In this document: piece by piece, positions 1-47,402 of the stretch
Layout: each line of letters opens with the position of its first letter
Position numbering within the stretch: the stretch's first letter is position 1
NCBI GenBank assembly: GCA_030390025.1
Contig: CM059431.1
Span: 113,462,001 to 113,526,000, forward strand
Length of the DNA stretch: 64,000 nucleotides
Source of the DNA: Squalus acanthias
Taxonomy: Eukaryota
Direction of reading: 5' to 3'
Program-made: the position numbers and the translations under genes
Notes under the pieces: model-generated
The model's database searches: none
What the model was told of the DNA's origin: nothing
The model's input: only the letters and a program-made list of their open reading frames with translations

Positions 1-1305
1 GTGTAAGCAAGGTGCCTCAGGGTTTGGAAACACATTAAACTATTTACACTTTAATTTTGTAATTGCATCTTGGCTGAATTTAAAGCTGTTAAGGGTTCAA
101 AAATATTGTATAATTAGGAGTTCTAATTTTATGGCAGTCCGACAGACATGAGGGAATCAGCTTTAAGAAATTCGAAAAGTCCTTTGATTCTGTACATTTA
201 ATTTTTTTTTACATAGATACATAGATACATAGAAGATAGGAGCAGGAGTAGGCCATCCGGCCCTTCGAGCCTGCTCCGCCATTTAATGAGATCATGGCTG
301 ATCCTCCAATTCAGTATCCCGTCCCCGCCTTCTCTCCGTAACCCTTAACCCCTTTTGCCTGTAGAAATATATCTAATTCCCTCTTAAATATATTTAATGA
401 GCTGGCGTACACTGCCCTCTGTGGCAATGAGTTCCATAGGTTCACCACCCTCTGAGTGAAGAAATTCCCCCTCATTTCTGTCCTAAATGGTTTAGCCCTT
501 ATCCTTAAATTATGTCCTCTAGTTCTGTTCTCACCCGCCAAGGGAAACATTCCTTCTGCATCTAGTCTGTCTAGACCTGTCAGAATTTTATACACTTCTA
601 TGAGGTCCCCTCTCAATCTTCTAAACTCCAGTGTGTACATCCCTAAACTACATAGTCTCTCCTCATAGGTCAATCCCGCCATTCCTGGTATCAGCCTGGT
701 GAATCGCCGCTGCACCCCCTCCATGGCAAGAACATCTTTCCTCAGATGAGGCGACCAAAACTGTACACAGTACTCGAGGTGTGGTCTCACCAGTGCCCTG
801 TACAGCTGCAGCAAGGTATCCCTGTTCCTGTATTCCAACCCTTTTGCTATGAAGGCCAGCATACCGTTTGCCTTCTTGACCGCCTGTTGCACCTGCATGC
901 TCGCCTTCAGTGACTGGTGTACAAGAACACCCAGGTCTCTCTGTACTTCCCCCTCTCCCAATTTATTGCCATTTAAATAATAATTTGCCCTCCCGTTCCT
1001 GCACCCAAGGTGGATAACTTCGCACTTGTCCACATTATAGTGCATCTGCCATTTATCCGCCCAATCACCCAGTCTGTCCAAATCGCTCTGGAGCTTCCTG
1101 GTCTCCTCCTCTGAGCCCACCCCCCCTCCTAGTTTAGTGTCGTCTGCAAATTTGGAAATGCTGCATCCGACTCCCTGATCCAGGTCATTAATGTAAATTG
1201 TGAACAGCTGGGGACCCAGGACAGATCCCTGCGGTACCCCACTTGTTACTGCCTGCCATTCAGAAAATGAGCCGTTTATTCCAACTCTCTGTTTTCTATC
1301 TGACA

Positions 1306-1856
1306 AAATTGAGAGGTCGCACAACACCAGGTTATAGTCCAACAGTTTTATTTGAAATCACAAGCTTTCGGAGCTATCACTCCTTCCTCAGGTGAAGTAA
1401 ATTGGATACAGAATCGCCAGAGCATATATAGATGGAAAAAAAAGCATGTGTACTTTACAATTGCAGACCAATAAATTAAATCATCCTGACTATCTGCCAA
1501 GGTGTGATAAAGTTAATTAAGTCAGCCAGGAAGGTACCACATCAAAAGACGTAGCAAGATACAACTGAGACAATGAGGTGTAGTCGCAGGGGTTCCAACG
1601 TGTCAAAAGCTGCCGTCTGTATGTAAAACGAAAAGCTTTAAAAAAAATTTACTTTTTTACTGGGAAAATTTTTACTTTTTTACTGGGAATCACATCTGTG
1701 AACAAGCTAACGATGACTCGAGTCCGGATCACGTCATGTATCGTGACATAAACCCAAGATCCCGATTGAGACCGTCTTCATGAGTTCGGAACTTGGCTAT
1801 CAGTTTCTGCTCGATGATTTTGCGTTGTCGTGTGTTTCTAAGGTTGCCTTGGAGAA
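1306..1856 (-). mobile_element. 5'-truncated Penelope-like element (family A): GIY-YIG C-terminus + terminal repeat
   Basis: 10-bp TSD CTATCTGACA (1296-1305, 1857-1866); minus strand encodes LQGNLRNTRQRKIIEQKLIAKFRTHEDGLNRDLGFMSRYM*, typical of a Penelope endonuclease end. Confidence 0.88.
1358..1395 (-). ncRNA. Minimal type I hammerhead ribozyme motif in Penelope terminal repeat
   Basis: Minus strand: TCAC-CTGAGGA-A-GGAGT gata GCTCC-GAAA-GCT-T-GTGA (core CUGANGA/GAAA, stem I TCAC/GTGA, palindromic AGCT stem III). Confidence 0.75.
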
Positions 1857-3813
1857 CTATCTGACAGCCAGTTCTCTATCCACGTCAATACTTTCCCCTT
1901 TATCCCATGAGCTTCAATTTTCCCTGCTAATCTTTTATGTGGGACCTTATCGAAGGCCTTTTGGAAGTCCAGGTACACCACATCTACTGGCTCTCCCCCA
2001 TCTATTTTACCAGTTACTCCCTCAAAAAATTCCAATAGATTAGTCAAGCACGATTTACCCTTTGTAAATCCATGTTGACTCTGTCCTATCCTGTCCCCAT
2101 TTGCTAAGTGCTCCGCTATTTCATCCTTAATGATGGACTCCAGCATTTTGCCCACAACTGATGTAAGGCTTACAGGTCTGTAATTACCTGCTTTTTCCCT
2201 ACCCCCCTTTTTGAATAGTGGGGTAACGTTAGCTACCCTCCAATCCATGGGCACTGTTCCCGAGTCTAATGAATTCTGAAAAATCATACTTAGTGCATCC
2301 GCTATCTCTAGGGCCACCTCCTTCAGCACCCTAGGATGCATGTTATCAGGCCCTGGGGATTTGTCCGCCTTCAATCCCTTTAGCTTCCTTAACACCATAT
2401 CCTTAGAGATATTGATTTGCGTCAGTTTCTCCTTTGCAAATGTTCCTATTTTTCCCGATATCCCAGGGAGGTTTTTTGTGTCTTCCTTCGTAAAGACTGA
2501 CCCAAAGTATGCATTTAGTTGGTCTGCCATTTCCTTATTTCCCGTTATATATTCCCCCGTATCTGACTGCAATGGGCCAACTTTGGTTTTCACCAGTCTT
2601 TTCCTCTTGATATACTTATAAAAGCTTTTGGAGTTAGTTTTTATATTTTCCGCCAGCTTGCTTTCGTAAGCTATTTTGCCCCTCTTGATTAAGCCCTTTG
2701 TCCTCCTTTGCTCTATCTTAAACTGTTCCCAATCTTCCGCTCTGGCGCTTTTTTTGGCTATTTTATACGCCCTATCTTTGGATTTTATGCTGTCCCTAAT
2801 TTCCCCTGTTATCCACGGTTGAGTCACCTTTTTAGATTTCCTTTTATGCCAGATTGGTATAAACAATTTTTGCAATTTTGTCATTCTATCTTTAAATGCT
2901 TGCCATTGTTTATCTACCTCCAGTCCTCCCAGGAACGTTGTCCAATCAGACCTACTCAGTTCCCGTCTAATGGCATCATAATTCCCCTTGTTTAAATTCA
3001 GGACCTGAGTATCTGAGTCAATTTCTTCGCTCTCCATTTCGAGTGAGAAATCGATCATGTTATGATCGCTCTGACCCAAGGGTCCCCGTACAACAAGATT
3101 ACTAATTAGTCCCTTCTCATTGCACAGTACCCAGTCCAATATAGCCTGTTCCCGAGTTGGTTCCTCGACATATTGATCCAGATAACCATCCCTTAAACAC
3201 TCAAGGAATTCCTCCTCCTCATTATTTTTACTGATTAGGCTATTCCAATCTATATGTAAGTTAAAGTCACCTATGATGACAGCTGTGCTCTTATTGCACG
3301 CTTCTCTAATTTCCCTCGTGATGCCCTCCCCAACCTCTATTTTACTATTTGGAGGCCTATATACCACTCCTATTAATGTTTTTCGCCCCTCGTTATTTCT
3401 TAGCTCCACCCATATAGATTCTGTATTAACTGAGTTAATATCCTTCCTTTCAATTGCATTTATCCCTTCTTTTACCAGCAATGCTACCCCTCCTCCCTTT
3501 CTTTTTTGTCGATCCTTCCTAAATACTGAATACCCCTGTATGTTAAGCTCCCAGCCCTGCTCACCCTGCAACCATGTTTCCGTAATCCCAATTAGATCAT
3601 AATTATTAACCTCTATTTCCACAGCTAATTCATCTACCTTGTTCCTGATGCTTCTCGCATTAAGGTATAAAACCCTCAGGCTTTTTTTATGCTCACATTT
3701 TTTATGAATTAGTTTGGCCCTTTGTTTTTTGTTCCTCACCCTTTTACCATTTATTTCTGTCTGCCTTTCACTTTCCTCTATTTCACTACATAGGTTTCTA
3801 GCCCCCTGCCATA

Positions 3814-16410: not shown

Positions 16411-16639
16411 AATATATATAATATATATAAAACCCAGAACCTTATTTGACCTTTTCATGTATTTTCCACCTAGAATTTGACTTTTAATGAAGTGTATATA
16501 TGTATCTCCCACTCTCTTTGTTCCTCCACTGCATTGAAAACTTTCCAATTTATTTGCATTTTCTGTTCTTTTTCCCAAAATATCCTAATTCACCTTTATT
16601 TAAGTTTTCCACCCATTCCTCTAACTTTTTTTATTTATT

Positions 16640-16890
16640 TGTTTATGGGATGTGGGCATCGCTGGCAAGGCCAACGTTTATTTCCCGTCCCTAATTGCCC
16701 TTGAGAAGGTGGTGGTGAGCCGCCTTCTTGAACCGCTGCAGTCCGTGTGGTGCAGGTACTCCCACAGTGCTGTTAGGTAGGGAATTCCAGGATTTTGACC
16801 CAGCGACGATGAAGGAACGGCGATATTTTTCCAAGTCAGGATGGTGTGTGACTTGGAGAAGGACTTGGAGCTGGTGGTGTTCCCACTTCT
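16640..16890 (-). mobile_element. 3' fragment of the tRNA-headed LINE family
   Basis: Reverse complement matches 46245-46490. Confidence 0.85.
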
Positions 16891-20988: not shown

Positions 20989-21103
20989 TATTGCCCACCC
21001 CTAGTTGCCCTAAAAAGTGGTGGTGGGCCTTCTTCTTGAACTGCTGTAGATACAACTGAGTGGCTTGCTAGGCCACTTCAGATAGCAGTTAAGAGTCAAC
21101 CAC
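20989..21103 (-). mobile_element. SINE-like deletion derivative of the tRNA-headed LINE (leader fused to 3' tail)
   Basis: Minus-strand GTGGTTGACTCTTAACTG...CAGTTGTA (cf. 38642-38686) joined directly to CAGCAGTTCAAGAAG...GGGCAATA (cf. 46390-46449). Confidence 0.8.
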
Positions 21104-21835
21104 TTCCTCGACTAGGACCTCCAGAAAGGCATCAGAAAAGCGGGGGGCAGCCCTGAGATTCATCAGTCTGGCCAAAACGTCTTGAGGAATTGTTCAATGA
21201 ATAATGCAAGCATGGGATGAAACCTCACTTTAAGAGGTGCATCCCTGCTTTAAGTCAGCCTTGGGAGTCACGATGGGGCACCGTGGCTGCAGTGTCTACC
21301 CACTACAGGATGCACTGCAGCAGTGTGCCAAGGCTTCTTTGGCAGCACCTCCCAAATCCGTAATCTCCACCACCTATAAGGACTAAGGCAGCAGATGCAT
21401 GGGAACACCGCCACCTCCAAGTTTTCCTCAAAGTCACACACCATCCTGACTTGGACATATATTGCCATTCCTTCATCGTTGCTGGGTCAAAATCCTGGAG
21501 CTCCTTATCTAACGGCATTGCGGGAGTACCTTCAGCACACGGACTGTAGCTGTTCAAGAAGAAGGGCCAACGCCACCTTCTCAGGGCAATTACAGATGGC
21601 AATAAAGGCCGACATCGCCAGCGACGCCCACATCCCAAGAATAAATTTTTAAAATTGCATGCGTCATGTGGGTGAGCTGCCCAATTCTGCACACTATTGA
21701 GAGGGCAGCCCATCCGTCAAATTTAAATGAGGCACGAGACTTAAAATTGCATGGGTCTTGCCAGAAACACCATGGGAGTTTGCCACCCATCCTGCCCTCC
21801 ATACACTCGATTCCCGCCCTGGGTTAAAATCAGGA
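21100..21835 (-). mobile_element. Harbinger fragment with start of the Myb gene; hosts a LINE 3' fragment at about 21280-21645 (+)
   Basis: Minus-strand RAAPRFSDAFLEVLVEEV at about 21100-21155; 21280-21645 matches 46120-46495. Confidence 0.65.
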
Positions 21836-36920: not shown

Positions 36921-37379
36921 TGTATTGCATACACGTATTGTTTCATGGCAAGATAATTGCAATTGTAAGATAAAAACGTATGGTTAAAAGGTCAATGCTG
37001 TTGTATATTGAGCTTCATCTAGGCTCAGTCTCTGGTGCAGCTGGAATACTTGTGTTGTGAGAAACATTGATAAAACTTCACTGTGGTGGATAGTGGGCCA
37101 AGTCAGTGCAACAACTAACACTTGTCGGCTTCAACACAACCTTTGGCAATGTCTGTTTTTTAACTTAGTTTTAACTTCAGTTAAGCTTACAAGTCTGGGA
37201 ACATTATTCAGAACATTTTATCGGTAACAAAATACCTTTAGAAAGTATTCCTTAGGCTTTTTGCTCTAACAATTACAAAAAAAAGATGTAAAATTTGAGG
37301 ATATAGTAGATGACAGCAACACGAAGCTTTACTATAAATAGTTTCCTCCATTTATGGGAATGTAAAGTGGGGAATATCA

Positions 37380-38363
37380 CTATCCTTGGCTCCCTCCTAT
37401 TCCTCATCTGCACGCGGGCGACATCATCCGAAAACACATCAGGTTCCACATGTACACTGACAACACCCAGCTCTACCTCACCACCACATCTCTCGACTCC
37501 ACAACTGCCTCTGATTTCTCACACTACTTGTCCGACATCCAGTATTGGATGAGCAGAAATTTCCTCCAATTAAATATTGGAAAGACTGAAGCCATTGTCT
37601 TCGGTCCCTGCCACAAACTCTGTTCCCTAGCCATCGACACCATCCCTCTCCCTGGCTACTGGCTGAGGTTGAACCAGACTGTTTGCAACCTTGACATCCT
37701 ATTTGACCCTGAGTTGAGCTTCCAAACCCATATCCTCTCCATCACCAAGACCGCCTACGTCCACCTCTGTAACATCACCCATCTCCGCCCCTGCTTCAGC
37801 TCATCTGCTGCTGAAACCCTCATCCATGCCTTTGTTACCTCGAGACTCAACTATTCGAATGCTCTCCTGGCTGGCCTCCCACCTTGCACCCTTCGTAAAC
37901 TTCAGCTCATCCAAAACTCTGCTGCCCGTATCCTAACTTGCACTCGGTCCCATTCACACATCACACCTGTGCTCGCCAACCTACACTGGATCCCAGTCTG
38001 GCAATGCCTCATTTTCAAATCGTTCCATGGCCTCAATCCTCCCTATCTCTGTAACCTCCTCCAGCCCTACAACCCTCCGAGATCTCTGCGCTCCTCCAAT
38101 TCTGGCTTCTTGCACATCCCCGATTTTAATTGCTCCATCATTGGTGGCCGTGCTTTAATCTGCCTAGGACCTATGCTCTGGAATTCCCTCCCAAAACCTC
38201 TCTGCCTCTCTACTTCTCTCTCCTCCTTGAACACGCTCCTTAAAACCTATCTCTTTGACCAAGCTCTTGGTCACCTGTCCTAATATCTCCTTATGTGGCT
38301 CGGTGTCAAATTTTGTTTAATAATCATTCCTGTGAAGCACCTTGGGATGTTTTACTATGTTAA
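37380..38363 (+). mobile_element. L2 LINE 3' portion (RT C-terminus); tail resumes at 46501-46535
   Basis: 277-aa ORF YTDNTQLY...LQLNIGKTE...SRLNYSNALLAG...LLKTYLF; the L2 tail is split by the LINE at 38364-46500. Confidence 0.9.
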
Positions 38364-38375
38364 TGAGGGTATGGT

Positions 38376-38449
38376 AGCAGAGTGATTATGCTACTAGACT
38401 AGCAATCCAGAGGCCTGGACGAATGATCCAAAGACGTGAGTTCAAATCC
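38376..38449 (+). promoter_or_regulatory. Pol III internal promoter (A and B boxes) in the tRNA-like head
   Basis: A-box-like TAGCAGAGTGA (38376-38386) and B-box-like GTTCAAATCC (38440-38449). Confidence 0.65.
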
Positions 38450-41378
38450 CACCACGGCAGCTGTGGAATTTGAATTCAGTTAATTAAATAAATCTGGAAT
38501 AAGAAGCTAGTATCAGTAATGGTGATCATTAAACTACCGGATTGTCGTAAAAACCCATCTGGTTCACTAATGTCCTTTAGGGAAGGAAATATGCCGTCCT
38601 TACCTGGTCTGGCCTTTATTTGACTCCAGACCCACAGCAATGTGGTTGACGCTTAACGGCCCTCTGAAATGGCCTATTCAGTTGTAACAAATGTCTACGA
38701 AAAACAATAATAAAAATAAAACCGGACGGACCACCCAGCATCGAACTAGGCACAGACAATGACTCACCCAGCCCAGTCGACCCTGCAAAGTCCTCCTCAC
38801 TAACATCTGGGGACTTGTGCCAAAATTGGGAGAGCTGTCCCACAGACTAGTCAAGCAACAGCCTGACATAGTCATACTCACAGAATCATATCTTTCAGCC
38901 AATGTCCCAGACTCCTCCATCACCATCCCTGGGTATGTCCTGTCCCACCCACAGGACAGACCCACCAGAGGTGGTGGCACAGTGGTATACAGTCGGGAGG
39001 GAGTTGCCCTGGGAGTCCTCAACATTGACTCCGGACTCTATGAAGTCTCATGGCTTGAGGTCAAGCATGGGCAAGGAAACCTCCTACTGATTACCACCTA
39101 CCCCCATTCCTCAGCTGATGAATCAGTACTCCTCCATGTTGAACACCACTCAGAAGAAGCACTGAGGGTACTAAGGGCACAAATATACTCTGGCTGGGGG
39201 ACTTCAATGTCCATCACTAAGAGTGGCTCGGTAGCACCACTACTAACCTAGCTGACCGAGTCCTGAAGGACATAACTGCCAGACTGGGTGTGTGGCAGGT
39301 GGTGAGAGAACCAACACAAAGGAAAACCTACTTGACCTCATCCTCACCAATCTACCTGTCGCAGATGCATCTGTCCATGACAGTATTGGTAGCAGTGACC
39401 ATCGCACAGTCCTTGTGGAGATGAAGTCCTGTTTTCACACTGAGGACACCCTCCATCGTGTTGTGTGACACTTCCACTGTGCCAAATGGGATAGATTCAG
39501 AACAGATCTAGCAGCTCAAAACTGGGAATCCATGAGGCTCTGTGGGCCATTAGAAGCAGCAGAATTGCATTCCACCACAATCTGTAACCTCATGGCCCAG
39601 AAAATCCCTCACTCTGCCATTACCATCAAGCCAGGGGACCAACCCTGGTTCAATGAGGAGTGCAGAAGAGCATGTCAGGAGCAGCACCAGGAGTACCTAA
39701 AAATGAGGTGCCAACCTGGGGAAGCTGCAACACAGGACTACATGCATGCTAAACAGCAGAAGCAGCATGATATAGACAGGGCTAAGCGATCCCACAACCA
39801 ACGGATCAGATCAAAGTTCTGCAGTCCTGCCACACCCAGTCATGAATGGTGGTGGACAATTAAACAACTAACAGGAGAAGGAGACTCCATGAATAGCCCC
39901 ATCCTCAATGATGGCGGAGCCCAGCACACAAGTGCAAAAGACAAGGCTGAAGCGTTTGCAACCATCTTCAGCCAGAAGTGCCATGTGGATGAACCAACTC
40001 AGCCTCCTCCTGAGGTCCACACCATCACAGAAGCCAGTCTTCAGCCAATTCGATTCACTCAACGTGATATCAAGAAACGGCTTAGTGCACTGGATACATC
40101 AAAGGCTTTGGGCCCCAACAACATCCAGCTGTCGTGCTGAAGACTTGTGCTCCAAAACTAGCCGCGCCTCCAGCCAAGCTGTTGCAGTACAGCTACAACA
40201 CTGGCATCTACCCGACAATGTGGAAAACTGCCCATGTATGTCCTATCTACAAAAAGCAGGACAAATCAAATCCAGCCAATTACCGCCCCATCAGTCTACT
40301 CTCAATCATCAGCAAAGTGTTGGAAGGTGTCATCAACAGTGCTATCAAGCGGCACTTACTCACCAATAACCTGCTCACTGATGCTTAGTTTGGGTTCCGC
40401 CAGAACCACTTGGCTCCAGACCTCATTACAGCCTCGCCTCAAACGTGGACAAAAGATCTGAATTCCAGAGGTGAGGTGAGAGTGACTGCCTTAGACATCA
40501 AGGTGGCACCAAGGAGCCCTAGTAAAACTGAAGTCAATGGGAATCAGGGGGAAAATTCTCCACTGGCTGCAGTCATACCTAGCATAAAGGAAGATGGCTG
40601 TGGTTGTTGGAGGCTAATCATCTCCAGCTGCTTCATCAATGACCTTCCCTCCATCAGAAGGTCAGAAGTGGGGATGTTTGCTGATGATTGCACAGTGTTC
40701 AGTTCCATTCACAACTCCTCAGATAATGAAGCAGTCCATGCCTGCATGCAACAAGACCTGGACGACATTCAGATTTGGGCTGATAAGTGGTGTAAGATTC
40801 GAATCACAAGTCACACACAGATTACCCAAAGGGTCTTAGGAGTTGTAAGGCTTTTTATTAGAGAGCTACAGTTTAAGCATAATCAGATATTACTACATGC
40901 GATTGAAATAGATACAGTAGACATACAACCCGTGACAGATGAGGGCGATCTACGGTACTGGAATGGAACAAAACAACCGGACGGACGGTGAGGCAGTACG
41001 GTGGTCTCGGATTGGGTGGATTCCTACAGTCTGTGGCAGCGGTCACTTCCGTTGGGTCGTCCCGCGAGCTGTTGGAGGTGTTAGGCCATCAGCCAGCATT
41101 GATCCACCTCAGAGGCTAAACTTGACCAAGGTGTTAGGCCGTAGCCACCTCGGGGAAGCCTTCGCCCCTAACTGCCTGTTTTCCTCTCTCGGTCGCCTGT
41201 TTTTATACCTTATTTCGATGGGCTGGTGGATACCTGGTGTCAATCATTTTTACCCATCCCACTGTCCAATTACTAGGGAGAGGCTACCTCTGACAGCCCC
41301 CTCCCAGCCTCATGAGGTAATTTTCCTCCTTATCTCTGTTGTAAAGATCTTGTTGCCCTCTCGTAGACAGCTTGTTTA

Positions 41379-41932
41379 GAGTACTGTGTGCAGTTCTGGT
41401 CACCACATTACAGGAAAGATGTGATTGCACTAGGGAGGGTACAGACGAGATTTACAAGGATGTTGCCGGGAGTAGAGAATCTTAGCTATGAGGAAAGACT
41501 GGATAGGCTGGCTTTGTTTTCCTTGGAACAGAGGAGGCTGAGGGGAGACCTTATTGAGGTGTATAAAATTATGAGGGGCCTAGATAAAGTGGATAGAAAG
41601 GACCTATTTCCCTTAGCAGAGGGGTCAAAAACCAGGGGGCACAGATTTAAAGTAATTGGGGGAAGGTTTAGAGGGGATTTGAGGGGAAATTTCTTCACCC
41701 AGAGGGTTGTGGGGGTCTGGAACTCACTGCCTGAAAGGGTGGTAGAGGCAGAAACCTTAATCACATTTAAAAAGTACTTGGATGTGCACTTGGGATGCTG
41801 TAACCTGCAGGGCTATGGATCAAGAGCTGGGAAGTGGGATTAGGCTGGATAGCTCTTTGTTGGCCGGCGCGGACATGTTGGGCCGAAATGGCCTCCTTCC
41901 GTGCTGTAACTTTCTATGATTCTATGATTCTA
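41379..41932 (+). mobile_element. CR1 3' fragment inserted in the 3' LTR
   Basis: 151-aa ORF2 C-terminus, (ATTCTATG)n tail, 6-bp TSD TGTTTA; absent from the other LTR. Confidence 0.93.
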
Positions 41933-42519
41933 TGTTTATCCTACAGCTCCTTGCTGCATCACTTATCAGGCCTAGCTATGCCCAATCGAAGGCCTGTTTT
42001 TGTGTTCTGACCTCGTAATTCAGCTCTCTGTACAACTCTTTTTCTGACATGACTGGAATCTTTCTGTGTCATCAACTTAGGCAAACTGCTGATCTAGGGA
42101 ACCCGTAACAGACTATTATTTCTTTCGATCCACGATTTCTTACATCTCCCCACCTTGAGAACGAAATATCCTTATTGACTTCTCACAATCGGCTCTTGAC
42201 TATTCTAGCTAGTTCTTATTGCTCTCTCAACTTGGGCTTTAGTTAGTAGGGAGACTCGAAAATGAAGAAACCCCCTTCCTTAAAGTCCATTCCTTTGAGG
42301 GGGAGGAGCAACCTCTGACCCCTTACTCAAATTCAATTCACTGTTCCGATGTTCCAATTCTGCCCTGCCTGGGGTCTCCTCTGTTTGTTCTATCTTTCCT
42401 GATCTTAGCCCGCCTGGGGTCTCCTCTACATTGCTTCGGATCTTCTCTTTCAGTGTGCTCAATTAATTTGTTAGTGCTGGTTAGTCATAGACATGAGTAC
42501 ACAATTGGCTTATGCATCA

Positions 42520-43610
42520 AAGTCTTACTACATGGGTTACATATATCAAATACACTATCATTACAATTTCAGAACTACCAGAGCGTGTGAAATAATACGA
42601 AACTAAGAGTATGCTGATATATTAAGCCCAATATCCCACCAGTGTGAATCGTCCCCTATGCTGTCAATTTCAATATCTATTCTTGAGTTGTCTTGTTCTA
42701 AAACATAAAAATGGTTTAGGGAGGAGTTCAGTCCCATCACGAGCTCACTGAAACCCTCAGACAACAGGGGAATGTTGTACCCAATTGTGCCACATAATTG
42801 TGCAGCTCATACTTAAGTATCTCATTTACTGTCAGTTTCACTTGAGCATAGGTTTTGATATTGAGTAAAACGTGTTGGTTGATGGGACAGGTCTTGTTAG
42901 ACCCGTAAAGCATGGTAGTTACGGTAGTAGTGACACAGGAGGCACCACCAAAATCACCTCATACTGGATTCGTACTGGTTTTTCCCACGTTCTGTTATCT
43001 ACAAAACACAATTATTACAGTCACAGTTAAATTCAGTCTTACAATCATTTCAAGCGACATTACAGTTTAACATCAAATCAACAAGTCATGGACTTAAAAG
43101 ATTCTCCAAATCTCTCTTTTACTCGTATCCATCTTGTGGATAATTCTTACTAAACATGATTTCTCCTTAGCCCTGAATTGTCCCAATCCAGATTCCATGT
43201 AACTCTTCAGTTCTACTACGATTTAATTCCCTCTAACAGGTACCAGTGTGTTTAACTCTATTCTGATTATTTCATTAATTAGATAGTTTCTTGATGGAGT
43301 ATATGTCACTGCTTTAAAAGTTGTCTCACTCTCCTGAGCCACATTAACCATTTCATGTCGTACTGTTGTCAAGTAACTGAGCATGTCTGAGCCCCGTTCT
43401 TCAGTGCAAATTCACCATGCATTTCCGGATGGTAATTGCTTCATACGTGACAAATCACATTTGCACACTCACACCGGTATCTCAATATCGTGCCACATGT
43501 GCCATCCGATACAAGCCATTCTCGGGCTTTCAGGTGATCTTATCAAAAGATTGTCTGGCGATCTTTGCTCATCTTCCACCACATGGTCCCGATGTCTCGG
43601 GTAGTGGCCA
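42520..43610 (-). pseudogene. Decayed envelope/class I fusion-like membrane protein remnant
   Basis: Manual translation across frameshifts: SCVTTTVTTMLYGSNKTCPI, heptad-like LSEGFSELVMGLNSSLNHFYVLEQDNSRIDIEIDSI, HWWDIG, hydrophobic RIISHALVVL/EIVMIVYLIYV. Confidence 0.55.
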
Positions 43611-44903
43611 GACTATCAAATTCAGTTTTCTTAAAAAGTTCATTATAGGCAGGGATTCAAATGTCTCCAAGAGAAAGCTATTAATTTACTATTCGAAACT
43701 ACACTTTCCTGACTTTCACTAGAATAAAAATTCCCATTAATACCAGATTCTATCTCATTCATGAGTGTCTGGAGAAACTTTACTGTCCAATACAGTATTA
43801 AAGATAGAAAACATAGATCAAAGTTGTTTGGTGAACCAATTTAAAAAAAAACAGCTGCCAGCGGAAAGGGTTAACTCCTTTGCAAGTTTATAAGGTGGCG
43901 GGGCAAGTATTCTTATTAACTAAGCACGATACAGAACAGAAAATAAAACAAAAAAAAACAGTAAGTTACGTAATATTTCTCTTTGTTCTTTCTTCAGATG
44001 CGTTTTCAAATGACTGTGAAAATATTGAATACAACTGGAAAAAAATTAGTTTTCACATTTAAACTAAAGAAAACAAATTGCTTTGGAAAATTCACGATAG
44101 CAACCGCAACTCCAAGGTTAAATCTTAGATTGAAACTTAATCTTTTGTGAAACAAACTTTTTGTTTTTCTCAGTTTTTCCACACTAGCTTAACTTAAATT
44201 GTAGTTCAAAGTTTTATTTTCAATTCTGGGTGCACAATCTTATTCGCACATTCTTAAAACTTCCAAAATCCAAGACAAGTCTACAAAGGGTTAAACGGCT
44301 TTTAGCACAGAGAAGTGGGTGGAGCTAAAACAAACATAACAGACACTTTCTTTTAAAGACAGACTTTCAGACAGAAGGAATACTGCAGCTTCTTCAACAT
44401 TCATAGTCAGGAAAACTTTCACACTTTAACACACACTTTCACACAAACTGAAATTCCAGCATCCTTTAAGGTTCCTTTCATTCAGCAAATCTTGCGTTTT
44501 ATTTGTTTTGGCACAGATGCTGATAGCTTCCATGTCAGTAAAACTTTAAGTTTCACTTTTTTCTTCTTCTCTTAAATTGTCGTCTAAGCAGCTTTTCCTG
44601 GCTCTCCAAATCCCTGTTTTTTTCCTTCCTTTGCTGAGTTTTCAGATTGGTTAGCCTGCAACTTAGATTTTCTTCCCCTTCTCTATCTCCCCCTCTGTCC
44701 TGCACTTTATACTTCACCTCCTTCAGGCTATCTATCAACTGTTCCCAGTGATATGCCAATGCCATTGTATTTCTGGTTTTACCTTTAACTCACTCTCTCT
44801 CTCCCCTCTTTCAGGGAGTTCCCGACCCAGTCTTAAGCGATGATCACACGCGACCAAGCCCCTCCGGTCCCCACAACTGGAATCTTACAACTCCCAACTC
44901 TGT

Positions 44904-44922
44904 AATCCCACTTCTGACACCA
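44904..44922 (-). promoter_or_regulatory. Primer-binding site complementary to the tRNA-Leu(CAA) 3' end
   Basis: Minus-strand TGGTGTCAGAAGTGGGATT, 1 nt inside the 5' LTR. Confidence 0.85.
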
Positions 44923-47402
44923 CTGTAACATTTGAATCACACACAGATTACCCAAAGGGTCTTAGGAGTTGTAAGGCTTTTTATTAGAGAGCTATAGTTT
45001 AAGCATTATCAGATACTACTACATGCGATTGAAATAGATACAGAAGACATACAACCCGTGACAGATGAGTGCGATCTACGGCCTTGGAATGGAATGAAAT
45101 GACTGGACAAAAGGTGAGGCAGTACGGTGGTCTTGGATTGGGTGGATTCCTGCAGTCTATGGCAGCGGTCACTTCTGTTGGGTCATCCCTCGATCTGTTG
45201 GAGGTGTTAGGCCGTCAGCCAGCATTGATCCACCTCAGAGGTTAAAATTGACCAAAATTGGCCGTAGCCACCTTGGGGAAGCTTTCGCCCCTAACTGCCT
45301 GTTTCCCTCTCTCGATCGCCTGTTTTTATAACTTATTTCGATGGGCTGGTGGATACCTGGTGTCAATTATTTTTCCCCATCCTATTGTCCAATTACAAGG
45401 GAGAGGGTACCTCTGACAGCCCCCTCCCAGCCTCATGATGTCATTTTCCTCCTTATCTCTGTTCTAAAGGTCTTGTTGCCCTCTTGTAGACAGCTTGTTT
45501 ATCCTACAGCTCCTTGCTGCATCCCTTATCAGGCCTAGATATGCCTACTCGAAGGCCTGTTTTTGTGTTCTGACCTCGTAATTCAGCTCTCTGTACAACT
45601 CTTTTTCTGACATGACTGGAATCTTTCTGTGTCATTAGCTTAGGCAAACTGCTGATCTAGGGAACCCGTAACAGACTATTATTTCTTTCAATCCACGATT
45701 TCTTACAGTGGCAAGTAACATTCGCGCCACACAAGTGCCAGGCAATGACTATCTCCAACAAGAGAGAGTCTAACCACCATCCCTTGATATTCAACTTCAT
45801 TACCATCGCTGAATCCCCCACCATCAACATCCTGGGGGTCACCATTGATCAGAAACTTAACTGGACCAGCCACATAAACACAGTGGCTACAAGAGCAGGT
45901 CACAGGTTGGGTATTCTGCGGCGAGTGTCTCACCTCCTGTCTCCCCAAAGCTTTCCACCATCTACAAGGCACAAGTCAGGAGTGTGATGGAATACTTACC
46001 ACTGCCTGGATAAGTGCAGCTCCAACAACACTCAAGAAGTTCGACAACATCCAGGACAAAGTAGCCCACTTGATTGGCACCCCATCTACCACCTTAAACA
46101 TTCACTCCCTCCACCACTGGCGTACTGTGGCAACTGTGTGTACCATCTACAAGATGTACTGCAGCAACTCGTCAAGGCTTCTTCAGCAGCACCTCCCAAA
46201 ACCGTGACCTCTTCCACCTAGAAGGATAAGGGCAGCAGGCACATGGGAACACCAGCACCTCCAAGTATCCCTCCAAGTCACACACCAGCCTGACTTGGAA
46301 GTATATCGCCGATCCTTCATCATCATTGGGTCAAAATCCTAGAACTCCCCATCAACAGTACTGTGGCAGTACCTTCACCACACGGAATGCAGCAGTTCAA
46401 GAAGGCAGCTCACCACCACCTTCTCAAGGGCAATTAGGGATGGGCAATAAATGTTGGCCTTGCCAGCAAAGCTCACACCCCAGAAACAAATAAAAAGAAA
46501 TAAAGGCACTATATAAATGCAAGTTGTTGTTGTTGTATCAGTTTATGTGTTTGCTTAAACTAGTGAACAGAGAAAAATATAACCCTAATGCTGTTGGTAC
46601 CTCACCTTATAATTGTGTCATTGCATTTTGCATAGAAATATTTGAGTAACTTCACGTTTTTATTTTTTTACCAGTACAGTAATAAAACACTCTCCAGAGT
46701 ATAATTAAATGGTGGCAGGTCACCAATGTTTTAGCAAAAGGCAGGTCCTATTAATTTTGCCGTCAGACGAGTTTGCATTGCTGATATTATAAACAGTAAT
46801 GTTTTGTGAGGTAAGCATGTAATTATTTGTCTAGACCAGACAAGATTTGACATGCATTTGAATCAAAACAAACCTTCTATAACAGACAAGGAGAAAATAT
46901 ATCCTTTTAGTTTGTGCCATGTTTCTCAACAATTCCATTCTCTGTCCAACTAATGAAGTTATCAGAGAAGTCTGCCGTTGTTTATACGTGGTGTTAATAT
47001 AGGTTATTTAGACATAGTGGGGGAGGGGGATTATAAATGCCAGCGGGTGTCTGGCAGGAAACTATTGGTTTCAGTTAGTTTTCTGCTTGCCCGCAGGAGT
47101 ATCAGGCCATGGCTTTTAACCACAGGGCCTCACTAACATACCGCCATCCACCTCCCGCCTGTTCCAGAAAATCAGGCAGCCCTTGGCCGTCTACCAGCAC
47201 TCTGATAAGTGTGGGGAAGGGGGTTCCGGGAGTTGGGAACTGAGGGGAATATGGGGCAGGGGAGGACAAAACTTTCCTTGTAGGACCGACAGGAGCACGC
47301 CTGCTCCTCCTGGCCCCACAGTGGAAAGTAAAAAAACTTACCTGGAGGGCCTCTTCAGTTTTCCGATCCTTTTCGTGCTGATGTTTAAAGAAAAAACTTG
47401 CG

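Follow-up and report, generated by a model that had tools for sequence, protein, structure and literature searches.

Transfer RNA (tRNA)-derived short interspersed elements (SINEs) of the SINE2 type, for example CORE-SINEs with L2-type long interspersed elements (LINEs), carry a head with A and B boxes at their exact 5' end, followed by a conserved body; their 3' end is the same as that of a LINE. SINEs have been characterized as unable to encode protein (Kojima 2018, PMC5786205). Here we describe a retrotransposon family of Squalus acanthias, represented by one copy in a 64,000-nucleotide stretch of contig CM059431.1 (assembly GCA_030390025.1, positions 113,462,001 to 113,526,000, forward strand; hereafter the window). 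The arrangement of this element is that of a SINE2, with the difference that a 973-codon frame for an endonuclease and a reverse transcriptase (RT) stands between body and tail. The short derivatives of this LINE are ordinary SINE2-type members; the 3.3-kb element itself is neither short nor non-coding. Its head is one that we take to resemble the heads of MIR and CORE elements.

In its coding part, the family resembles ZfL2-2, Vingi-1 and RTE: a single open reading frame (ORF) codes for both an N-terminal endonuclease and an RT, ORF1 is lacking, and the length is about 3-3.5 kb. Zebrafish L2-2 (ZfL2-2), Vingi-1 and RTE are indeed described as single-ORF elements (PMC13708176). Their 5' untranslated regions (UTRs) are not known to derive from tRNA. 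Bipartite non-autonomous LINEs, and SINEs with bodies made of LINE 5' UTRs, offer a second likeness, since they join LINE 5' and 3' ends by internal deletion, as do 11 of 16 head-bearing places sampled in this study. According to the model of Kojima, the tRNA head is added after the LINE deletion, and the RTE and Vingi clades alone contribute (2018, PMC5786205). In the present family, by contrast, the LINE with its ORF already bears the head.

The joining of a polymerase III transcript in sense orientation 5' of LINE sequence is also seen in U6/L1, tRNA/L1 and Alu/LINE-1 chimeras. Small-RNA/LINE-1 chimeras are described as forming in one retrotransposition event, for which RNA ligation or template switching has been proposed; Alu/LINE-1 and tRNA/LINE-1 single insertions are reported in humans, and such recombination has been speculated to renew LINE-1 5' UTRs (Law and Burns, 10.1101/2025.02.02.635956). 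Those chimeras are single insertions with 5'-truncated parts, whereas the headed LINE retained its ORF in full and gave rise to a family with thousands of copies. Cassandra, Helenus and Ajax, described as long terminal repeat (LTR) retrotransposons with 5S or tRNA promoters (PMC10886601), likewise place a polymerase III-type promoter on a non-SINE retroelement; they are short and non-coding, whereas the headed LINE encodes its own enzyme. We found no description of a tRNA-headed LINE in the literature; Repbase and Dfam lay outside this search and may hold a consensus of the family.

A tRNA-derived head is the 5' terminus of a LINE family

The window copy (38367-46500) is a single insertion inside the tail of an older L2-like LINE. 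It begins with a tRNA-like head carrying A and B boxes (38367-38455, plus strand), which is followed by a leader of about 240 nt (38456-38698) and by one endonuclease-RT frame. A reading of the window made from its sequence alone (the sequence-only reading) had claimed that the L2 tail is cleanly split, and this was borne out. The host tail breaks off at 38363 (...ACTATGTTAA) and picks up at 46504 (AGGCACTATATAAATG...), and in contigs from four other organisms, which are contigs of uncertain kind with loose ends in all four sets, 38363 is joined directly to AGGCGCTATATAAATGCAAG. Since these contigs run through 38363 without interruption, the host tail was cleanly split by the insertion. Together they span the whole stretch, but no start or end recurs among them, which makes them uninformative about transcription. 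A TAA at 38361-38363 recurs at 46501-46503 and may be a 3-bp duplication. The first base of the element proper is 38367 (GGGTATGG...). The TGA at 38364-38366 consists of extra bases at the 5' junction: in an alignment of 17 copies (the window copy plus the 16 full-length copies described below, a set used throughout), the three columns preceding GGGAAYGG vary among copies.

A 362-nt query comprising the head and the leader returned 6,129 first-look candidates from the 3.7-Gb genome. Among 40 candidates scored, the 39 non-self matches were all 87-90% identical across nearly the full length. When head-matched loci were fetched with their flanks, every one of the 29 extended into the endonuclease region, 27 of them to at least 39900, near the end of the fetched flank; the other two end at 38880 and 39507. 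Twenty loci were then fetched in full and 16 with both ends were used, L032, L035, L044 and L046 being excluded (3' part missing, interrupted or deleted). These 16 copies measure 3,060-4,299 nt, the longer ones containing later insertions. All 16 open with GGGAAYGGTAGCATAGTGG, immediately preceded by unrelated flank, and 15 finish with ...GAAYGAAT (or minor variants) and an A/T-rich run; the 3' end of L037 is disrupted.

As this sample had been selected by the head, the test was reversed on 20 copies selected by their endonuclease region. Eight extend to the 5' end of the head and 12 are truncated into unique flank. An alternative upstream sequence common to copies was found in none of the 20, nor did any headless full-length form with an ORF1 or another 5' UTR appear among them. 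In addition, the genome contains 3,884 occurrences, at up to two mismatches, of a 25-mer that spans the leader-ORF junction, and none of its reversed control. Throughout the family, full-length copies have the head as their true 5' terminus, in line with the suggestion of the sequence-only reading, and the RNA copied into new insertions started at the head and contained the ORF.

Four of the 20 endonuclease-selected copies (L057, L058, L061 and L064) start about 70-100 nt into the element, at or just past the B-box/T-arm. This may reflect reverse transcription halting preferentially at the tRNA-like structure, or else an additional start site.

The head matches a tRNA model below threshold and carries conserved A and B boxes

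ARAGORN reported no tRNA anywhere in the window. With default settings it detected one of 16 family heads, and with relaxed thresholds the heads were indistinguishable from LINE bodies; because of this poor separation we relied on the Rfam tRNA model and on the box motifs. The Rfam model matched 38374-38453 with 18.6 bits and an E value of 0.53 (gathering score 29) and the same site in four of eight further copies with 17.9-23.3 bits, which makes five of nine tested copies including that of the window, all below threshold. The match takes in the D, anticodon and T arms and leaves about 21 additional bases at the position of the variable arm. In the family majority, the A-box site (38375-38385) reads TAGCATAGTGG and the B-box site (38439-38449) reads AGTTCAAATCC, sequences that we judged against the canonical box motifs; their columns are 92% and 97% conserved, respectively, in the 17 copies. 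The model match and the conserved boxes together uphold the earlier claim of a tRNA-like head at the start of the insertion.

The roughly 21 nt at the variable-arm position (about 38411-38431) resemble a local duplication (CCAGAG...CCAGAG), and copy L051, which lacks them, has the top tRNA score of 23.3 bits. Recurrent weak Rfam matches to the archaeal snoRNA model sR23 were also seen at 38775-38815 and equivalent positions (11.7-20.7 bits, gathering score 45). We take these as a chance likeness that recurs since the sequence itself is repeated.

One frame encodes an endonuclease and a reverse transcriptase

The sequence-only reading saw endonuclease-RT sequence directly after the leader, without an ORF1, and frame analysis of the copies agrees: no ORF1 was found in the element, and one frame opens at 38688, right after a stop at 38685-38687. 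In the family majority this frame covers alignment columns 333-3251, 973 codons without a stop, and it is closed by a stop at column 3252 in 16 of the 17 copies. The window copy, in which the frame is disrupted by stops and frameshifts, holds it in two parts, 38688-40794 and 45712-46437 (stop TAG at 46435-46437), with the endonuclease at about 38802-39412 and the RT from about 40257. Better copies give clear matches to the Pfam families Exo_endo_phos, Exo_endo_phos_2 and RVT_1; those of the window pieces are weak. The endonuclease was recognized in a 340-aa frame of copy L044 (PF14529, 3.5e-13; PF03372, 3.3e-7) and the RT in copy L045 (PF00078, 2.7e-31). The four copies with the best-kept ORFs begin at LINE positions 192-821.

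The element thus has the features of a LINE: an N-terminal endonuclease of the apurinic type, an RT downstream in the same frame, and a shared 3' end with variable 5' truncation. The 17 copies showed no target-site duplications beyond chance, the longest words common to both flanks having a mean length of 4.35 against 4.43 in mismatched pairs. Certain LINE clades produce short target-site duplications or none. The nearest full-length proteins are 37-42% identical and 935-1,054 aa long, on contigs of 3.2-3.8 kb. The C-terminal 280 aa are 23% identical to the 305-aa frame of the host L2-like LINE (E 9e-9), and only a short C-terminal motif is held in common with a CR1-like fragment elsewhere in the window.

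The leader is the best-conserved region of the element: pairwise identity averages 94.5% there and 91% in the coding part. An ATG at 38640 (alignment column 277), in a frame other than the main one, is present in 16 of 17 copies; otherwise the leader holds just short frames. From this ATG, a frame of about 84 codons (columns 277-529) extends into the beginning of the main ORF, in the +1 phase relative to it, and most copies keep it open; it may act as an upstream ORF that helps to initiate translation of the main frame. Past the column-330 stop, the 17 copies have no conserved in-frame ATG, and inspection by eye revealed no canonical slippery site between the upstream ATG frame and the main frame.

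The 3' UTR (46438-46500 in the window) has a two-step hairpin and an A-rich end, the family majority finishing in ...GAACGAATAAAAAAA. In a well-kept copy it folds at -25.4 kcal/mol (z -2.69), and three of 200 shuffles fold equally well. The hairpin is probably an element recognized by the RT that is common to the LINE and its SINEs. Three LINE copies (L033, L036 and L039) and two SINE copies (L072 and L080) end in ...GAAT, four or five T and an A-run, in place of which others have GAATAAAAAAA. The T run in those tails is at the extreme 3' end, and the common form of the tail creates AATAAA. These features recall the tails of mammalian SINEs described as combining a polymerase III terminator with a polyadenylation signal (PMC8466645).

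Head, leader and ORF are inherited as one unit under selection

Variants were regarded as shared when the second allele was present in at least 4 of the 17 copies. Outside CpG sites, shared variants of the coding part comprise 36 synonymous and 18 non-synonymous changes. At CpG sites, which decay recurrently after insertion, there are 13 synonymous and 38 non-synonymous ones, as expected of later decay. The 237 nt of the leader contain three shared non-CpG variants, a rate far lower than that of the 36 synonymous changes, for which we estimate roughly 700 sites. The variants define at least two subfamilies, and those of the head are linked to those of the ORF. The 36:18 split, together with this linkage, means that the headed unit evolved under protein-level selection through successive source copies. 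Head, leader and the 973-codon frame were thus inherited as one unit across at least two subfamilies, with the protein under purifying selection.

SINEs with the same head are internal deletions of the LINE

The window also contains a fragment (20989-21103, minus strand) of a SINE-like derivative, in which the leader is fused to the last ~110 nt of the LINE. The same junction is crossed by all 39 other genome matches to this fragment, and 12 of 12 fetched derivative copies have LINE positions ~4-335 fused to ~3166-3275. As 25-mers, this junction is counted 433 times and the head 17,804 times. Places with an exact head were sampled in listed order (n=16): two are LINEs, 11 are short derivatives and two are interrupted early, and the remaining one is LINE-like to position 383, where another repeat follows. 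In the 11 derivatives, the 5' part ends at ~302 to 375 and the 3' part begins at ~3132 to 3181, giving at least six types of junction, one of them in three copies. Their 3' parts start within C-terminal coding sequence of the LINE, at a motif common to distant relatives. The short SINEs with the same head therefore arose by repeated internal deletion of the headed LINE.

The heads of L167, L170 and L171 are broken by another repeat starting ...ATAGAAACATAGAA / ATAGAATCATAGAATGG, which seems to be a frequent, separate family.

T4 runs are absent from the consensus

Runs of four T (T4) act as polymerase III terminators, and a single one had been noticed on the sense strand of the window copy. 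We counted exactly one (39432-39435) against 19 A4 runs in 3,223 nt of LINE sequence, and no other copy has T4 at that column. For comparison, the host L2-like piece contains four T4 runs in 998 nt and the nested CR1-like piece one in 569 nt. The 17 copies have 0-8 sense T4 runs each (0-3 without those in later insertions of L031, L034 and L037) against 14-21 A4 runs. Within the element T4 runs are private, except at two sites, each found in two copies, and in the extreme tail (GAATTTTTAAAAA or a variant of it) of three copies. The majority sequence is free of T4 in the leader, the coding part and the 3' UTR; its coding part has five T3 and 14 A4 runs.

The sequence-only reading had suggested that the family captured a polymerase III promoter and became depleted of terminators. 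The head is indeed family-wide, and the depletion goes in the proposed direction, but it is statistically weak and comes largely from low T. Compared with synonymous-codon shuffles, the coding part with its zero T4 runs falls short of an expectation of 1.85, with P(0)=0.11; position-specific base shuffles give 2.86 and P(0)=0.056, and the leader alone 1.09 and P(0)=0.31. The expectation is low because the T content is 20-21%. By our own arithmetic, the product of the coding and leader P values is ~0.03, and individual copies give P values from 0.02 to 0.63. Phenylalanine codons show a trend, with three TTT against 15 TTC when 36% of all codons end in T. Being weak, the T4 statistics do not by themselves prove selection against terminators.

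Distant relatives, 27-43% identical, were sampled by fetching 80 metagenome loci. All 52 of their ORFs contain T4 runs, between 5 and 41 (median 24.5) at a T content of 0.235-0.35, and the headed LINE has the sole T4-free ORF among the 53 related ORFs compared. A scan of 49 upstream regions of these relatives for heads gave one box-pair match against ~2 expected (background 12 in 287 kb), no head standing out above that background. In its lack of T4, a prerequisite for read-through by polymerase III, the headed LINE stands out among its relatives.

Alternative origins of the full-length RNA

The features described above suggest the following course of events. An ancestral LINE RNA whose original 5' end was missing would have been fused to a polymerase III-type head, either through template switching or because transcription read through from a SINE lying upstream; at the junction there is an A-rich stretch. 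The internal A/B-box promoter of the head would have freed the element from dependence on its insertion site. Polymerase III would start at the head and read the whole of an ancestral LINE that was T4-free from its first base to its tail, and this RNA would serve as the template of retrotransposition; the same promoter would drive the SINE derivatives. Given that the head presumably drives thousands of derivatives and that a type-2 promoter is indifferent to what lies downstream, polymerase III should start on LINE copies as well and encounter no T4 over 3.3 kb. Whether polymerase III starting at the head is the productive route to full-length LINE RNA is, from these sequence features, a nearly balanced question that tips slightly towards doubt. 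The wider proposal of an autonomous retrotransposon that would have a 3.3-kb polymerase III transcript kept free of T4, an uncapped RNA with an unconventional start of translation, and SINEs of its own born by deletion, is more tentative, and taken as a whole we consider it possible but somewhat improbable.

Several observations weigh against such a polymerase III element. The polymerase III transcripts found in nature fall far short of 3.3 kb, and being uncapped they would be poorly translated. The head matches the tRNA model below threshold, and its minimum-energy fold is not a cloverleaf. The absence of T4 is weakly significant once composition and codon usage are kept, as the shuffles gave P(0) values of 0.11, 0.056 and 0.31. 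Every full-length copy examined is decayed: an intact 973-codon frame was found at none of 91 scored places, and the longest open frames reach 815-874 aa, the four that were fetched being 5'-truncated copies. Moreover, an internal polymerase II promoter would equally predict a precise 5' end.

Such a promoter, located in the head or leader, would leave the family as real as before. The full-length RNA would come from polymerase II, the tRNA part being kept for some other reason, for instance because it stabilizes the RNA or aids its export or its association with ribosomes, or else as a relic, and polymerase III would act only on the short derivatives. We regard this as a serious possibility, if less than an even one. 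LINEs are described as polymerase II-transcribed (Kojima 2018, PMC5786205; Kojima 2024, PMC10886601). The statistical weakness of the T4 deficit suits this explanation, as does the protein-level selection on the ORF, which requires efficient translation, and the leader is more constrained than the head, fitting a regulatory or RNA-level role without polymerase III. Yet an identical head, its A and B boxes intact, is found on thousands of short derivatives, which presumably depend on it, a type-2 internal promoter should attract polymerase III on the LINE copies too, and the ORF is alone among the 53 in lacking T4.

Other explanations concern the bond between head and LINE. The headed 3.3-kb copies might be passengers moved in trans by a related headless LINE, their frame being open through recent descent; the missing in-frame ATG past the column-330 stop and the absence of an intact copy among those scored would suit such passengers. 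This is nevertheless improbable, as the 36:18 synonymous excess stems from variants common to headed copies, which define subfamilies that are headed throughout, and a headless 5' end was seen in none of the 20 endonuclease-selected copies. A LINE that lands site-specifically in SINE copies, so that the head only seems attached, is very improbable. After the 3' end of the LINE there is no second tail and the flanks are unrelated among copies; 5'-truncated copies have unique upstream flank rather than the 5' part of a SINE, and their leader is progressively truncated along with the LINE; and the supposed SINE tail is the LINE's own C-terminal coding sequence, conserved in distant relatives. Flanks, truncation pattern and the linkage of head variants to ORF variants refute such targeting. 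An A-rich stretch at the leader-ORF junction (38700-38721), between the leader and the rest of the element, could be taken to mean that in the window a SINE inserted independently beside a 5'-truncated LINE. Since the genome holds this junction 3,884 times, and each of the 29 other head-matched loci has it as well, the one-off chimera is refuted, and we give it next to no chance.

Other features of the window

The upstream part of the host, the 3' part of the older L2-like LINE (37366-38363, plus strand), contains the 305-aa open frame, and its relatives in the four contig sets run on into AGGCGCTATATAAATG; the downstream half of the host tail occupies 46504-46540 on the same strand, as judged from its sequence and from the contigs of other organisms. 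The headed LINE is in turn interrupted by a nested LTR element of ~4.9 kb (40795-45707, plus strand) with TG...CA ends, flanked by a GTGG duplication at 40791-40794 and 45708-45711; other copies of the family cross 40794/45712 without interruption. The sequence-only reading had made no mention of this element. Its LTRs, at 40795-41378 plus 41933-42144 and at ~44921-45707, are direct repeats of 92-97% identity. Since its longest ORF does not exceed 115 aa, it is probably a non-autonomous or decayed LTR retrotransposon. The 5' LTR is broken by a 3' fragment of a CR1-like element (41379-41932, plus strand), which has a 158-aa frame with a CR1-type C-terminus and a ATTCTATG-like repeat tail. The order of events in the window is therefore the L2-like host, insertion of the headed LINE into its tail, of the LTR element into the RT region, and of the CR1-like fragment into the 5' LTR. 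Two more 3' fragments of the headed family or its derivatives lie at 16628-16885 (minus strand) and 21274-21646 (plus strand), 87% and 78% identical to the tail of the window copy.

Implications

In conclusion, a coding LINE that bears a tRNA-derived head crosses the textbook division between LINEs, coding and transcribed by polymerase II, and SINEs, non-coding and transcribed by polymerase III. It also provides a concrete case of a LINE exchanging its 5' UTR for a foreign RNA, as has been speculated for LINE-1. If its full-length RNA is indeed made by polymerase III, the element would furnish a protein-coding transcript of polymerase III that occurs in nature and exceeds 3 kb, with a bearing on what limits elongation and termination by this polymerase, as well as on cap-independent translation. 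It could also be of interest where compact single-ORF retrotransposons are being developed into gene-writing tools. By shedding its ORF repeatedly, the headed LINE gave rise to SINEs, a simple route for the birth of such elements. Should the wider proposal of an autonomous polymerase III-driven retrotransposon hold, the family would be a living intermediate between LINEs and SINEs.

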